Positions 18,058-63,820 of a DNA stretch of 64,000 nt are shown one piece after another. The translations under genes and the position numbers were made by a program. The DNA is from Escherichia coli. Its GTDB lineage: Bacteria; Pseudomonadota; Gammaproteobacteria; Enterobacterales; Enterobacteriaceae. Under the pieces are notes generated by a model. It saw nothing but the letters and a program-made list of their open reading frames with translations, searched no databases and was not told the DNA's origin. The stretch lies in the NCBI RefSeq assembly GCF_051903065.1, contig NZ_CP178438.1; one strand, 5' to 3'. Position 1 is the first letter of the stretch. Each line of letters opens with the position of its first letter.

Positions 18058-18420
<363 letters not shown>

Positions 18421-54004: not shown

Positions 54005-54079
54005 GTCCTCTTAGTTAAATGGATATAACGAGCCCCTCCTAAGGGCTAATTGCAGGTTCGATTCCTGCAGGGGACACCA
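54005..54079 (+). tRNA. argW: tRNA-Arg (anticodon CCU)
   Basis: 75-nt cloverleaf GTCCTCTTAGTTAAATGGATATAACGAGCCCCTCCTAAGGGCTAATTGCAGGTTCGATTCCTGCAGGGGACACCA. Confidence 0.9.
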
Positions 54080-57535: not shown

Positions 57536-57937
<402 letters not shown>

Positions 57938-58033
57938 CATGCATCACAACAGCTCCTCATAGGCACTCAGTGGTCGATGTTCCACCTGACTGATCTGCTG
58001 CCAGAGCGGGGCGTGAGGTTCCGGTACTATCTG

Positions 58034-58375
58034 CTAGCCAGACGACACTGAGCAGAGGCGATGTGAGGCCACCAGTTTCTCATTACTGTAGATCCGCAAC
58101 TCATCGTTCAGCGATATTCGTATCGAGACTGGCTGACCACACAGCATTTCGGGAACGCTGTACTGATTACCTCCAACTTCGTTATAGCGGGTCCCAGGAC
58201 ACATGGCGGATGTCGAAGTAACTGGTATCGAAGTCTGTATCCGGTAACGGCTGCAGATGTTCCTGCTCCAGCGCGAAGCGCTGTTCCGGCGTTTCTTTGA
58301 ACTGACGAAGCTCCCATTTGTCAGCCACATCGGCTAGCGCCAGCTAACCTATGCGGTACTGGCCTTGGTGCTAAC
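58034..58375 (-). pseudogene. IS21-family IstA transposase fragment (frameshifted)
   Basis: Minus-strand frames give ...EQEHLQPLPDTDFDTSYFDIRHVSWDPL and GNQYSVPEMLCGQPVSIRISLNDELRIYSNEKLVASHRL; opposite orientation to the istB fragment. Confidence 0.6.
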
Positions 58376-58616
58376 CCGCGTTAAAGCTACCACGTTGATC
58401 AGAGCCTCTCTCCCGGAAAGTCATACTGTCTTACATATTAATCACTCAAAATAGAGTAAATAAAATCATACAACTAGAGAGTGATTATAATTGTTATTGA
58501 ACACTGGTTATCCCATTTTTGTTATATTGATCACAAAACCCTTCTTTTTATGATGATCTAAAAATAAATATTAAATATTGTGGTCAGGCCGCTAGACCAC
58601 AATAAGAGGAAATATC

Positions 58617-59906
58617 ATGAAAAGAAAAACCATGGGGTGGATTATCGTTTTTCTTCTGTTTATAGTTTACATGCTGAACTATATGGATCGTTCTGCATTA
58701 TCGATTACGGCCCCACTTATCGAAAAAGAGTTAGGCTTTAATGCTGCTGAAATGGGGATGATTTTCAGCGCATTTTTCGTTGGTTATGCTTTATTTAACT
58801 TCATTGGCGGTTGGGCCAGTGACAAAGTTGGACCCAAAACAGTATTTTTGGTTGCTGCACTGTTGTGGTCTGTTTTTTGTGGTATGACCGGTCTGGTCAC
58901 CGGATTATGGACAATGCTTGCCGTACGTGTTTTATTTGGTATGGCAGAGGGCCCGGTTAGTGCAGCAGGAAATAAAATTATTAATAACTGGATCTCGCGT
59001 AAAGAGTCGGCAACAGCTATCGGTATTTTTAGTGCTGGTTCACCACTTGGTGGCGCTATTTCTGGTCCGGTCGTTGGCTTGCTGGCAATATCACTTGGCT
59101 GGCGTCCGGCGTTTGGGATCATATTTATATTTGGCCTAGTTTGGGTATTACTGTGGTACTTCTTTGTCAGTGATAAACCGTCAAAAAGTAAACGTCTGGC
59201 AGCGGAAGAACGTGTCGATTTCGAAAACCATGACGATATTATTCTAGCCGAAGATGGTAAAGGTACACCTTCGCTTGGTTATTACATGAAGCAGCCGATG
59301 GTATGGGCGACCACGCTGGCATTTTTTAGCTATAACTATATTCTATTTTTCTTTCTTACTTGGTTTCCAAGCTATTTGAATCATTCATTACACATTGATA
59401 TTAAAGAAATTAGTATTGCAACTGTTATCCCGTGGTTTATTGGGGCAATTGGCATGGTGTTAGGTGGCGTCTGCTCTGACTTTATTTATCGTATTACGGG
59501 AAATGCCTTACTTTCTCGCCGTTTAATTCTCGGCAGTTGCCTTGCGGGGGCCGCGGTTTGTGTCGCTGTTTCCGGAACTGTTACCTCTATTGGTAGTGCG
59601 ATTACGCTGATGTCTGTTTCCTTATTCCTGCTTTATCTAACTGGACCTATTTATTGGGCTGTTATTCAGGATGTAGTGCATAAAGATAAAGTAGGTAGCG
59701 TAGGCGGTGCGATGCACGGTCTGGCAAATATTTCCGGCATTATTGGTCCATTGGTAACCGGTTTTATTGTCCAGTTCAGTGGTAAATATGATTACGCATT
59801 CTATCTTGCAGGTGCCATAGCAATCATTTCAAGTCTGCTGGTATTCATTTTTGTTAAAAATAAAGGATTGAAATTCAATGAAAGTCAAAGCTGTGTACAT
59901 CAATAA
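58617..59906 (+). CDS. MFS transporter, anion:cation symporter (ACS) type (sugar-acid/hexuronate-like)
   Basis: 429 aa, 12 predicted TM; motif GGWASDKVGPK; absent from this position in K-12. Confidence 0.85.
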   Translation: MKRKTMGWIIVFLLFIVYMLNYMDRSALSITAPLIEKELGFNAAEMGMIFSAFFVGYALFNFIGGWASDKVGPKTVFLVAALLWSVFCGMTGLVTGLWTMLAVRVLFGMAEGPVSAAGNKIINNWISRKESATAIGIFSAGSPLGGAISGPVVGLLAISLGWRPAFGIIFIFGLVWVLLWYFFVSDKPSKSKRLAAEERVDFENHDDIILAEDGKGTPSLGYYMKQPMVWATTLAFFSYNYILFFFLTWFPSYLNHSLHIDIKEISIATVIPWFIGAIGMVLGGVCSDFIYRITGNALLSRRLILGSCLAGAAVCVAVSGTVTSIGSAITLMSVSLFLLYLTGPIYWAVIQDVVHKDKVGSVGGAMHGLANISGIIGPLVTGFIVQFSGKYDYAFYLAGAIAIISSLLVFIFVKNKGLKFNESQSCVHQ

Positions 59907-60903
59907 ACCTGGTGAAATTGCTACCCGTCTGGTCGATTATCCAGTAAGAAAAGATAATGAAGTTTTAATTAAAGTGGATGCAGCGGGAATTTGTGGTTCT
60001 GACATCGGTGCATTTCGTGGTACTAACCCACTGGTAACTTATCCGAGAATTATTGGACATGAAGTCACCGGGATTGTTCTGGAAACCGGTGAGGGGGTAC
60101 CACAAAATATCAAACAGGGCGACCGGGTTATTGTAGATCCCTATGTTTATTGCGGTCACTGTTATCCATGTTCTGTAGGTAGAACTAATTGCTGCGAGAA
60201 CTTAAAAGTCATCGGCGTACATATTGATGGCGCTATGCAAGAAGTGGTTTCGCATCCGGCTCACTTAATTCACAAAATTCCTGACAATGTACCGTCAGAG
60301 ATGGCGCCACTGGCTGAACCCTTAACTATTGCCCTACACGCATTACATCGAGCGCAATTGAAAGCAGGTGAACATGTCGTCATTATTGGTGCAGGCGCTA
60401 TTGGACTTATGGCGGCCCTGAGTTCGTTGAACTATAAAGCAACTCCCATTCTGGTTGATATTGTCGATGAACGGTTGCAATACGCGAAATCGCTCGGCGT
60501 ACCTTATGTAGTAAACTCCGCAAAAGCTAATGTTATTGAGGCAGTGAAAGATATTACACAAGGGACGATGGCTCAGGTTGTGGTGGAAGCCTCTGGTGCA
60601 AATAGCGCAATCAGAAGTACCCTGGATCTGGCCTCATTTGCAGGGCGTATAGCCTATACTGGTTGGCCAAAGCAGGAAACATCGTTACCAACTAATCTAA
60701 TTACCTTTAAAGAACTAGATTTACGTGGTTCCCGTACCAGTGCCGGTGAATTTGAAGAAGCCCTGCAAATGTTATCAACGCTGAATATTAATCCGGCTGA
60801 TATCGTGAGCAAAGTCGTGACAATAGATGAAGTTCCTGAGGCTGTAAAAGAGTTAGATCAATTTCCGGAACGCTATCTGAAAATTAACGTGAAATTCATT
60901 TAA
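59878..60903 (+). CDS. Zn-dependent medium-chain dehydrogenase (L-galactonate 5-dehydrogenase LgoD-like)
   Basis: 341 aa; catalytic Zn GHEVTG, structural Zn CGHCYPCSVGRTNCC, NAD motif GAGAIGL; overlaps the MFS gene by 29 nt. Confidence 0.85.
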   Translation: MKVKAVYINKPGEIATRLVDYPVRKDNEVLIKVDAAGICGSDIGAFRGTNPLVTYPRIIGHEVTGIVLETGEGVPQNIKQGDRVIVDPYVYCGHCYPCSVGRTNCCENLKVIGVHIDGAMQEVVSHPAHLIHKIPDNVPSEMAPLAEPLTIALHALHRAQLKAGEHVVIIGAGAIGLMAALSSLNYKATPILVDIVDERLQYAKSLGVPYVVNSAKANVIEAVKDITQGTMAQVVVEASGANSAIRSTLDLASFAGRIAYTGWPKQETSLPTNLITFKELDLRGSRTSAGEFEEALQMLSTLNINPADIVSKVVTIDEVPEAVKELDQFPERYLKINVKFI

Positions 60904-60930
60904 TTATAATTAACAAAAATAAAAAGTCTG

Positions 60931-60959
60931 ACGCGTAGTGTATTCACTACGCGTTTTTT
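60931..60959 (+). terminator. rho-independent terminator of the MFS-dehydrogenase operon
   Basis: acgcgtagtg-tatt-cactacgcgt stem followed by ttttt. Confidence 0.7.
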
Positions 60960-60961
60960 GT

Positions 60962-61403
60962 GTGCGCCGTGACTGGCGCTGTTCTTCAACTGTGGTGGCT
61001 GAAGAACGACTAAGAGGTGAAAGTTCTCCAAACACCCGGTGAGGGGAAATGTTAGCGGAAGGCAAGGATGTTCATCGCGAGGTGAAATCTGAAGGAAGCC
61101 GGATGCAAAATGCTGGCCTGACGAACAGGAAGCGGCTAAGGCGGCACAAATCACCAAAGCCCAATACTCACACGGAACGCGGTGACGTACAGCCGACAGG
61201 CATAAGCAGGAAAGTCGTGCGAATTACCCCGGGAGATCTGCCGCTCTGCCAGTGTGCTACCGACGCCGTAGTAGCGCTGCAAAACCGGCAGCATGAAGGG
61301 CCGAACATAATTAACCGTGATTAGGACATCCGAACCCGATGATGATTAATGAAGCATAAACGCAGGCAACTGCGGCCAGCGGCAGAAGAGACGGACGGCA
61401 TCC
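60962..61403 (+). other. candidate 5' fragment of a group II intron RNA (domain I region), truncated
   Basis: Begins GTGCGCC immediately after a terminator U-tract; GC-rich non-coding stretch with GNRA-like loops; no domain V or RT ORF; abuts the IS3-family element. Confidence 0.4.
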
Positions 61404-61446
61404 TGAGGTGTACTGGCAATAGCGGACACTACCATTTGTTCTTTTT

Positions 61447-62265
61447 TTAAGCAGCCATCTGATGATATTTTTCCCTGAAGGCTGCCGGGGAGATATTCCC
61501 CAGACGAGAGTGACGACGCTGACGATTGTAGAAAATCTCAATGTATTCCCGTATTACTGAGATGGCCTCATCCCGGCTATTAAAACGATAGTGGCTCAGG
61601 CTCTCATTTTTCAGCGTTCCCCAGAAGCTTTCCATCGGAGCGTTGTCGTAACAGTTACCTTTACGCGACATTGATGTTTTCAGACCAAACTGCTCCTGGA
61701 TGACCCGGTAATCGTATGCGCAGTACTGTGAACCTCGATCGGAGTGGTGGATTAGCCCAGCAGGTGGGCGCTGGCTCCTGAGCGCCATAAACATGGCTTT
61801 ACCTGTCAGCTCTTTTGTCATGCGCTCTCCCATGGCGTAGCCGACAATTTCGCACGTATAAACATCTTTGATGCCAGCGAGGTACAACCATCCCTCCTGT
61901 GTGGCAACATACGTCAGGTCCGCCACCCAGACCTGATTTGGTACTGTAGGAGCGAACGTCTGGTTCAGCAGATTTGGCGCAACTGGCAGATTGTGGCTCG
62001 AGTTCGTAGTCGCTCTGAACTTGCGTTTCTGCTTACAGCGTAGCCTTAGCTCCTTACGAAGACGTGCCAGTCGGTCACGACCAACGATGATGCCATTCTC
62101 TGCCAGCTCCGTCTGGAGCCGCCGGGTTCCATATGTTTCGCGAGTGCTGATATGTGCCACCTTAATCTCCAGTTTTAGCCGCTCATCACTTTGTTTTCTG
62201 TCTGAGGGGTCATGCTGTACCCAGTTGTAATAACCGCTCCTGGATACACCAAATACCTGACACAT
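61447..62265 (-). CDS. IS3-family transposase OrfB (DDE integrase-like domain)
   Basis: 272 aa; ...VWVADLTYV..., [19 protein letters not shown] motifs. Confidence 0.88.
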
Positions 62266-62342
62266 CGCTTCAATGGGAAATTGTTGTCGCCATTGTTCGA
62301 TTAACGCGTATTTTTCAGCGACTCCTGTGCAAAATACGCTGT

Positions 62343-63563
62343 TGTAGATTCAATCTGTCAATGCAACACCCCTTTCAATTATCTCTTTCGGTGTTTTGAA
62401 CTTCAGTGTCTTTCTCGGTCTGTTGTTTAGCTGAGCAGCAACCAGATCTAGTTCATGTTGAGTATATTGGGCAAGACATGTCTTTTTAGGAAAGTACTGC
62501 CGAATTAGCCCATTTGTGTTCTCATTTGTTCCCCGCTGCCAAGGACTCTGAGGATCGCAGAAGTAAACTTTAACGCCGGTGCTGACAGTAAATTCTAGAT
62601 GTCTGGCCAGTTCCATTCCTCTGTCCCATGTCAGTGATTTTCTGAGTTCTGACGGTAAACTCAGGAATTTGTCGGTAAGAGCCTGATTTACTGAGACAGA
62701 ATCTTTGCCCCTGAGTCTAAGGATGATCGTATAACGTGATTTTCGGTCTACAAGTGTGGCTATATGAGAGTTTTTTGTACCTAAGACTAAATCGCCCTCC
62801 CAATGCCCCAGAGAGCGTCTGTTATCGATATTTCGGGAACGTTCGTGAATTGGTGTTCCGTTCACTATGTTAATCGTACCTCTTTCGCCTTTGCGGGTAT
62901 GACGCCTGCCATGGCGAAGGCTATGCGACCGTCGCAGATGCTGTATATTCAGGTGGTGTAGCGCTTCACGGCTACGAAAGTACAGCGTTTTATAAATTGT
63001 CTCAGGTGATATTCGCAGCGTTTTTTGACGTGGTTTTGTTCGCCTTAACCATCCTGATATTTGCTCTGGAGACCATTTCATCTCCAGCTTTTCCAGAACA
63101 AGCTTTCGCAATGGTAAATTTTGATCCAGTAAGCACGGTTTTGGCCTTTTCGCCATTCTGTTGGCTCGGTTATTAGCATCAACAGCTTTGTAATAGCGTC
63201 TGCCCCGATTACGCTGAACTTCACGTGAGATCGTCGAAGGACTGCGATTCAGCGCAGTAGCTATCGCACGAATGCTCATTTTGGCTGACAAACCAGCTCG
63301 TATCTCCTCGCGCTCAGACAGTGTCAGGTGAGCTACAGCCCGCTTACGCTCATGGGGTTTTATGCCGCCAGTATCCCTTAACATAGTGAAGATCGTTCCG
63401 GGTTTTGAACCCAGGATATTCGCTATTTCACTGAAGCCTGTTCCGTTCTTCCATAGTTCAAAAACAGAGGCTTTTTCCTCTGCTGTAAATGTTCGTCTCA
63501 TTCAAAAAACCTCTGCAACCCCATGTTTTCACATAACTGTTGCGTTGACCAATTGAATCTACA
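62343..63563 (-). mobile_element. IS30, 1221 bp
   Basis: Ends TGTAGATTCAATCTGTCAATGCAACACCCC and (reverse complement) TGTAGATTCAATTGGTCAACGCAACAG; 383-aa transposase inside. Confidence 0.92.
62350..63501 (-). CDS. insI: IS30 transposase
   Basis: 383 aa; MRRTFTAEEKASVFELWKNGTGFSEIANILGSKPGTIFTMLRD... Confidence 0.92.
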   Translation of the reverse strand: MRRTFTAEEKASVFELWKNGTGFSEIANILGSKPGTIFTMLRDTGGIKPHERKRAVAHLTLSEREEIRAGLSAKMSIRAIATALNRSPSTISREVQRNRGRRYYKAVDANNRANRMAKRPKPCLLDQNLPLRKLVLEKLEMKWSPEQISGWLRRTKPRQKTLRISPETIYKTLYFRSREALHHLNIQHLRRSHSLRHGRRHTRKGERGTINIVNGTPIHERSRNIDNRRSLGHWEGDLVLGTKNSHIATLVDRKSRYTIILRLRGKDSVSVNQALTDKFLSLPSELRKSLTWDRGMELARHLEFTVSTGVKVYFCDPQSPWQRGTNENTNGLIRQYFPKKTCLAQYTQHELDLVAAQLNNRPRKTLKFKTPKEIIERGVALTD

Positions 63564-63820
63564 ACGGCTTTTTTTAATATGTCCCGTTCGTCGGTAACCC
63601 GCTTCAGCTCTTTCTGGAGACGGCGGATCTCGGCCTGAGCATCTGACTGTTCTTTATTAGTGGAAGAATCCGGACCGTACTTCTTTATCCAGGAGTAAAG
63701 GCTGTGGGTGGTGATATTGAGACGTGTTGCAACGCTGGCAACAGAATAACCGCGATCAACAACCTGTTTGACTGCTTCAATTTTAAACTCTTCGGGATAA
63801 CGCTTACCGCTCATGGGCAC
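63564..63820 (-). CDS. IS3-family OrfA (HTH), 3' end interrupted by IS30
   Basis: MSGKRYPEEFKIEAVKQVVDRGYSVASVATRLNITTHSLYSWIKKYG...ERDILKKA, then the A-run slippery site and the IS30 end. Confidence 0.8.

Follow-up and report, generated by a model that had tools for sequence, protein, structure and literature searches.

A relic of an E.c.I6-like class C group II intron behind a transcription terminator in an Escherichia coli genomic island

Between a zinc-binding alcohol dehydrogenase gene and an IS3-family insertion sequence (IS), the 64,000 nucleotides of Escherichia coli DNA analyzed here (the window) contain a GC-rich stretch over which the RefSeq records annotate no feature. This locus raises the question of what the stretch is and how it came to lie where it does. 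An earlier, sequence-only reading had proposed that a truncated class C group II intron starts directly 3' of the terminator of the dehydrogenase gene and ends at the IS, and that it represents an unannotated retroelement relic. We conclude with high confidence that positions 60962-61403 of the plus strand are a nonfunctional relic of a class C (IIC) group II intron of the E.c.I6 family, with the history proposed below. The relic is indeed unannotated, and it belongs to a known type of element.

Evidence for the identity of the stretch comes from RNA models and from alignments to complete introns. The covariance-model search that had been suggested as a check returned the group II model RF02001 (gathering score 32), which aligns over its full length (model positions 1-170) and thereby reveals conserved sequence and structure of group II domains I-IV. 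This is the sole significant Rfam match in 58000-64000 and, when the whole window is scanned at gathering scores, the sole intron match. With a permissive threshold (E <= 1), the only other match in 58000-64000 is a sub-threshold match to IS009 inside the IS30 element. Intact relatives score 133-140 bits with RF02001. The motif GAGGTGAAATCTGAAGGAAGCC, to which the sequence-only reading had drawn attention, is located at 61079-61100, within the best-conserved portion of the Rfam match.

Comparison with complete introns by using BLASTN, which had also been suggested, aligns positions 1-500 of E.c.I6 with 60962-61403. As the E.c.I6 reference we used the CFT073 copy (NC_004431, 4320108-4321914; coordinates from Leclercq and Cordaux), to which the relic is 94.6% identical over 442 positions, outside gap runs of 18 and 40 nt. 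Six other copies of the family are 94-96% identical to the relic over 442 nt. When three full-length introns were compared with the window, the BLAST match was confined to 60958-61403. The sequence GTGCGCC, reported at 60962, is present and corresponds, base for base, to the start of full-length introns in the alignment. The GTGCG 5-mer alone means little; the alignment of GUGCG (60962-60966) to the 5' ends of intact copies is what carries its correspondence to the GUGYG consensus. At the other side, homology to intact introns stops at 61403/61404 and is followed by TGAGGTG..., in agreement with the proposed end at the IS3-family element. The description of a GC-rich stretch of about 440 bp also holds, with G+C of 0.53-0.58 over 61000-61400 versus 0.39-0.47 in the flanking gene and spacer. 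Given the identity outside the two deletions and an EBS1 that differs from that of E.c.I6, the relic is best described as E.c.I6-like.

Relatives of this sequence are common. A megablast search with 60905-61420 identified related DNA in 1,217 of 5,426 complete E. coli genomes, and many of these matches coincide with genes that carry the annotation "group II intron reverse transcriptase/maturase"; the same is true of plasmids. Full-length relatives carry matches to RF02001, RF01998 and RF00029 (domains V-VI) in that order around a 462-aa ltrA, whose protein matches TIGR04416 with 413 bits. Features of the locus are collected in Table 1. The limits of domains were transferred from Rfam alignments on relatives, and are inferred positions for this reason.

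Table 1. Features of the relic and its surroundings. Coordinates are those of the window unless a locus is named.
Feature	Position	Strand	Basis or remarks
Zinc-binding alcohol dehydrogenase CDS, upstream of relic	59878-60903
Rho-independent terminator of the dehydrogenase gene	60930-60959	+	Terminator scan; stem 60930-60940/60945-60955, loop TATT, T run to 60959
IBS1, last four bases of the 5' exon, TTGT (UUGU)	60958-60961	+	Complementary to EBS1 ACAA, 61146-61149
Whole intron relic, 442 nt	60962-61403	+	E.c.I6 positions 1-500 minus two deletions (BLAST, alignments)
Loci of the 19-nt 5' hairpin unit	60962-60981; L002:3980-4020; L011:2461-2530; L007:1109-1130
Domain I	60962-61235	+	Approximate 3' limit ...GAATTACCCCGGGAG, inferred from Rfam spans on relatives
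RF02001 (group-II-D1D4-3) match, core of domain I	61071-61222	+	89.3 bits, E 1.2e-17
Unpaired 11-nt bulge AUCUGAAGGAA with AGGAA, epsilon-prime region	61087-61097	+	RF02001 alignment structure line
Junction of 18-nt deletion (GGC direct repeats) and EBS1 ACAA	61143-61149 (EBS1 61146-61149)	+
5' strand of domain II, then junction of 40-nt deletion (CCG microhomology 61260-61262)	61236-61262	+
Domain III, GCCGUAGUAGCGCUGCAAAACCGGCAGCAUGAAGGGC	61265-61301	+	RF01998 structure on L002, transferred by alignment
5' part of domain IV and start of intron ORF	61302-61403	+	Alignment to L002, ltrA annotation
IS3-family outer end and part of orfB (IS3-A)	61404-62342	-	NF033516, 330 bits
IS30, 1221 bp	62343-63563	-	Inverted repeats; NF033563, 278 bits; no target duplication
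orfA end of a different IS3-family element (IS3-B)	63564-63877	-	N-terminal part of NF033516

Class C introns insert 3-11 nt past a terminator stem-loop, and recognize their exons through an IBS1-EBS1 pairing of 3-4 bp (PMC1702495). Both properties can be assessed at this locus. The sequence-only reading had placed the terminator stem at 60931-60954, with a U-tract to 60959; the terminator scan delimits a hairpin at 60930-60955 with 11 pairs, 6 of which are G-C, and the same end of the T run. The 40 nt preceding the relic have a predicted folding energy of -17.6 kcal/mol, and equal stability is reached by 0.8% of random 40-mers from the window. With the stem ending at 60955, the relic starts 6-8 nt 3' of it, depending on whether an 11-pair stem with a G-U closure or a 10-pair stem is considered. 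The dehydrogenase terminator probably served as the target stem-loop used by the intron.

The same preference is seen across the family. We compared seven independent insertion sites (the window, grpO, agg4A, an afa plasmid, bcsB and two others), and all seven are preceded by a stable hairpin. Folding energies for the 40 nt upstream range from -12.9 to -21.8 kcal/mol, which places each site within the top 0.1-5.4% of random 40-mers. A related locus that is free of the intron (L005/L006, 92% identity) was found on plasmids and one chromosome, with the order MFS transporter, dehydrogenase, terminator and a convergent GntR-family regulator. The same terminator hairpin is found there, with divergence setting in directly 3' of the T run; what this locus confirms is the terminator, rather than an exact empty site or IBS3.

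In the window, IBS1 (UUGU) and EBS1 (ACAA) form four of four possible pairs, which is the short pairing typical of class C. Class C introns have no EBS2/IBS2 pairing, and the position of IBS2 is taken up here by the terminator stem. EBS1 is presented in the terminal loop, CACAAAU, of the central hairpin of RF02001. The ACAA/UUGU combination is repeated with all four pairs at two further independent sites, L004 and L012, although L004 fits this register only when its intron start is read as GCGCG (a U2-to-C change). At L010, the corresponding sequences are AUAC and GUAU (4/4), and at L002 they are AUAC and CUAU (3/4). Exon and EBS1 loop covary across the insertion sites of the family. A different register, in which EBS1 would be the three bases before CACC, gave no fit and was rejected; loop positions 2-5 fit five of the seven sites. 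E.c.I6 and L011 form just two of four pairs, and the EBS1 assignment consequently rests on those five.

To assign the intron to a class, we used the features defined by Toor et al. (2006; PMC1702495), and these agree with the class C assignment made by the sequence-only reading. E.c.I6 is itself listed as ORF class C (Leclercq and Cordaux 2012; PMC3522654, Table S2). The reverse transcriptase (RT) of the intact relative L002, when compared with the PDB, best matches the GsI-IIC RT (6AR1) from end to end (475 bits, 2e-141). Three further IIC maturases rank next, and the IIA protein LtrA and a IIB maturase score 151 and 121 bits, respectively. The Pfam domains found in the L002 protein are RVT_1 and GIIM only, with no HNH/En endonuclease domain; judged on this relative, the intron has the endonuclease-less RT of ORF class C. 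Within the relic, an 11-nt bulge containing AGGAA is unpaired between two helices, following the hairpin at 61071-61086, and such a bulge is specific to IIC introns (PMC1702495). Domain V, which is absent from the window, starts GAACCGCCG and reads GAACCGCCGUAUGCGG... in relatives. It thus has CGC rather than AGC, and CGC in place of the AGC triad is another class C characteristic (PMC1702495).

What remains of the ribozyme differs in part from the first description, in which domains IV-VI and the RT were considered missing. Domains V-VI and most of the RT are absent, but the 5' part of domain IV and the start of the ORF are present. Domains I and III and the 5' half of domain II are also preserved, with two internal deletions that had escaped the sequence-only reading. 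Domain I includes the GUGCG start and hairpins at 60964-60979, 60981-61007 and 61014-61029. The 18-nt deletion is evident from E.c.I6, where GCAGCAGGGTAAGGTGGC separates GGCGGC from ACTAATC; in the window, GGCGGC is joined directly to ACAAATC. Through this deletion, the EBS1-presenting hairpin, which is seen in the RF02001 alignment of L002, lost its 5' strand. With the 40-nt deletion, domain II lost its distal hairpin and its 3' strand, and J2/3 lost its start. Because of this deletion, the domain II-III model RF01998, which matches L002 and L003, has no match in the window even at E <= 1. In domain III, one stem pair is broken by a single substitution.

The intron ORF begins with ATG at 61339, encodes MMINEA, and reaches TAA at 61357-61359 in place of codon 7, which is CAA in relatives. 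It is cut after 21 codons, with the IS3-family element at codon 22; of the RT/maturase, the relic thus holds the first 21 codons only, including the stop. Scanning the entire window at the gathering score revealed no match to RF00029 (domains V-VI), and BLAST revealed no match in the window to the 3' 1300 nt of relatives. Since domains V and VI are absent, the element in the window is a fragment and not an intron. Without these domains and an RT, the relic would be unable to splice or to move, and is presumably dead. Judging from its sequence, it most likely does nothing.

The IS side of the locus is more complex than it appears. The apparent single IS3 element is a chimera, because 63564-63877 derives from a different IS3-family element. 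At the nucleotide level, IS3-B and the corresponding part of IS3-A are not significantly similar, and the two elements are joined by IS30 at the homologous A7 frameshift-site region. The arrangement in strain AMSCJX02 (L001) clarifies how the IS and the intron are related. Positions 57559-62344 of the window are 99.96% identical to L001 4655-9440, and the window leaves the AMSCJX02 arrangement exactly at the IS30 end. In AMSCJX02, IS3-A is intact (1264 bp), is flanked by a TCC duplication and lies inside the intron. Past the IS, a remainder at L001:9764-10474 carries E.c.I6 positions 497 onward, with large deletions, up to a recognizable 3' end (...ACTCGAT, L001:10474); this remainder has no recognizable domain V. 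Because the intron continues past the IS and the TCC duplication flanks it, the event was an insertion of the IS into the intron and not a truncation by it. The IS had been taken as the point of truncation, and this part of the earlier interpretation does not stand. Its suggestion of successive invasions does, with an IS3-family element entering the intron and IS30 entering IS3-family sequence.

In APEC E19025, the junction found in the window is present at 99.9% identity, and the remainder of the intron lies about 15 kb away in inverted orientation. Given this shared junction, the remainder probably occupies a similar place in the genome that contains the window. A single inversion in the lineage of the window was considered as an explanation and does not fully hold, for in APEC E19025 the remainder starts 35 nt deeper and borders on yet another fragment of the IS3 family. 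In a genome with the window-type arrangement, the 3' remainder of the intron (L009:8725-9627; NZ_CP126931.1, 1536724-1537626) is annotated as two "hypothetical proteins", WP_229457565.1 and WP_023148293.1, which are fragments of the RT ORF. We also observed the same IS end (CCTGTACATAGATTTGT...) located 7-15 nt past the intron 3' end at two unrelated insertion sites (L001:10475-10560 and L004:5843-5900), followed in L001 by a frameshifted transposase gene. This common end could reflect a shared target preference or co-mobilization.

We propose the following history for the locus. An intron RNA-protein particle would have recognized the terminator stem-loop of the alcohol dehydrogenase gene, as expected from established class C biology (PMC1702495, PMC3522654). 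EBS1 (ACAA) would have paired with UUGU just past the T run, leading to reverse splicing into DNA 6-8 nt after the stem. The inserted intron would then have been copied by its endonuclease-less RT, presumably with En-independent priming. For this copy, the pairing and target data support such an arrival. Because the terminator stayed intact upstream, the host operon would have been undisturbed. Decay of the copy followed, as its sequence shows. Slippage between GGC repeats caused the 18-nt deletion and the loss of one strand of the EBS1 hairpin, and slippage between CCG repeats caused the 40-nt deletion, which cost domain II its 3' half and J2/3 its start. About 5% of bases underwent substitution, and a CAA-to-TAA change created the stop at ORF codon 7. 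As sister strain AMSCJX02 shows, an IS3-family element then entered the intron at ORF codon 22, where a TCC duplication flanks it. In the lineage of the window, a rearrangement associated with IS30 would have joined IS3-A to a different IS3-family element; the junction itself is visible, and the mechanism is a likely one. What now lies beside the terminator is the first 442 nt of the intron; the rearrangement would have removed the rest.

Several other explanations for the locus were considered. The IS3-family element could have removed the entire 3' part of the intron on arrival, such that the rest of the intron and the IS never coexisted. The window taken by itself is compatible with this simple truncation, as nothing intron-like follows the IS and the flanks of the composite IS (ATCC... 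and TTCG...) lack a target duplication. However, in AMSCJX02 the same IS is intact and TCC-flanked, and is followed by E.c.I6 sequence from position 497; also, the divergence of the window coincides with the IS30 end, and the sequence past IS30 comes from a different IS3-family element. We therefore consider simple truncation very improbable. Slimmer still seems the chance of a co-option of the relic into a role such as that of a structured read-through RNA, or of a 3' UTR element acting on the dehydrogenase operon or the neighboring IS. The relic is kept at 99% identity or more in roughly 165 E. coli records, and its position directly past the terminator means that read-through transcripts would contain it. 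Nevertheless, recent common descent of the island explains this retention, given that the adjacent gene is equally conserved (at least 99%) in 152 records. The deletions destroy conserved ribozyme helices instead of preserving structure, the related locus works without the relic, and no other RNA family matches.

Assignment to another group II class (IIA, IIB, or ORF class D or CL), with the terminator position being a coincidence, is conceivable on the grounds that the Rfam D1-D4 models carry no formal class label and that the relic itself encodes no RT to classify. Yet the RT of relatives is far nearer to IIC proteins and is without an En domain, the IIC-specific AGGAA bulge is present in the window, domain V of relatives has CGC (GAACCGCCG), every one of the seven family sites follows a hairpin, and the literature places E.c.I6 in class C. 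A different class is thus exceedingly improbable. Finally, the one ORF of any size on the plus strand, of 91 aa, extends across 61049-61324, as could be expected if the stretch were a protein-coding remnant, or unrelated GC-rich DNA beside a chance GUGCG. This ORF matches no NCBIfam family, and homologues exhibit within it a 40-nt indel, the length of which is not a multiple of 3; the sequence-only reading had likewise seen no credible ORF. With an RNA model matching at E ~1e-17, we regard the probability of this explanation as negligible. Against its own proposal, the sequence-only reading had named the lack of any group II match, or a match to a coding gene or a different RNA; what matched was the group II model RF02001. 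A class C intron relic of the E.c.I6 family remains our preferred interpretation.

The fragment occurs at 99% identity or more in 165 records and the dehydrogenase gene at that level in 152, and the relic is therefore fixed in this type of island. A tRNA-Arg(CCU) gene (54005-54079, plus strand) is located about 7 kb upstream of the relic, and the IS-rich island that holds the intron may have integrated beside it. Upstream of the MFS transporter gene (window 57559-58330; L001:4659-5433) are degraded pseudogenes for a Mu transposase and an ATP-binding protein, and these, too, mark the whole segment as a patchwork of remains of mobile elements. Elsewhere in the window (18107-18359, minus strand), three tandem Rfam matches to naRNA4/CssrE (RF02564, 75-80 bits), spaced by 91 nt, constitute a REP-type repeat cluster.

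Leclercq and Cordaux (PMC3522654) reported 111 intron fragments in 90 Enterobacteriales genomes, and group II introns in Enterobacteria are mostly inactivated copies or fragments inside mobile islands (PMC3522654). The family, class, target preference and fate of the intron described here are all already known, and this relic is new to annotation only. It adds one more case to a documented pattern of inactivated introns and opens no new question. Once it is labeled as a class C intron fragment, a GC-rich spacer that is otherwise an orphan in about 165 E. coli records is explained. The relic also provides a dated marker for the layering of the island, in which the intron came first, the IS3-family element second, and IS30 with the rearrangement last.

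Other members of the family exhibit variation at the 5' end. A 19-nt hairpin unit, GCGCCGNGNCNUGGCGCGUA, varies in copy number: the window, E.c.I6 and L004 have a single unit, L002, L010 and L012 have two each, and L011 has three. Of 30 E. coli matches taken as a spread sample, 13 align with a two-unit query from its first bases and 16 align only from its position 22, as a 5' end with a single unit would. The one-unit form is without CCGGG, a segment for which CCCGG at the domain I end is a possible pairing partner. It might be a variant competent for splicing and mobility, or RT slippage at the end of cDNA synthesis might generate the variation in units, but we hold this idea only tentatively and think it rather unlikely. 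Copies with an intact ORF are found on plasmids after the terminators of adhesin operons, and the E.c.I6 family may still be active and structurally plastic. The copy at L004:4003-5842 (CP056605, after agg4A) has an intact 462-aa ltrA, and its RNA begins GCGCG instead of GUGCG. Nearly all of domain II and J2/3 are gone from this copy (a 59-nt gap); its protein is intact and, by its sequence, its ribozyme is probably dead.

Whether the relic had already been catalogued was also considered. Leclercq and Cordaux (2012) list E.c.I6-1a, E.c.I6-1b and the 976-bp E.c.I6-tr1, none of which is at this locus, so this possibility was rejected. E.c.I6-tr1, a truncated copy in E. coli SMS-3-5 (NC_010498, 1127307-1128304; PMC3522654, Table S2), occupies a different genome position and is therefore not the same relic.

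Among well-studied class C elements, B.h.I1 of Bacillus halodurans, the Oceanobacillus iheyensis intron and the GsI-IIC RT (PDB 6AR1) share class-level IIC features with the relic and its family (PMC1702495). Those in common with B.h.I1 and the O. iheyensis intron are a terminator target, a short IBS1-EBS1 pairing and the AGGAA bulge, together with the CGC domain V and En-less RT of the relatives. These two introns are distant sequence relatives only, and the window copy differs in being without the catalytic domain V. Much closer are the intact copies on virulence plasmids of E. coli and E. fergusonii (for example, NZ_OZ547151, with ltrA WP_021515390.1, and CP056605, after agg4A), which are 94-96% identical over 442 nt and use the same type of target. 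Unlike the relic, they encode an uninterrupted 462-aa RT/maturase, and most have two 19-nt 5' hairpin units where the window has one.

The nearest comparison is with E.c.I6 itself, which is present in CFT073, ED1a, S88 and APEC O1. E.c.I6 retains its full length of 1807 nt; domains V-VI are present, and its RT region is disrupted yet complete in length. The window holds the equivalent of its positions 1-500, from which 18 nt in the EBS1 stem and 40 nt in domain II and J2/3 are missing. The EBS1 is ACAA in the relic and ACUA in E.c.I6, and the loci are different: the relic lies in an argW-side island after the alcohol dehydrogenase gene, and E.c.I6 lies after grpO. The two are alike in their one-unit 5' end (GUGCGCCGUGACUGGCGC), in the order of domains I-IV and in the start of the ORF. 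Both follow a terminator hairpin, and both are inactivated copies that reside in genomic islands.
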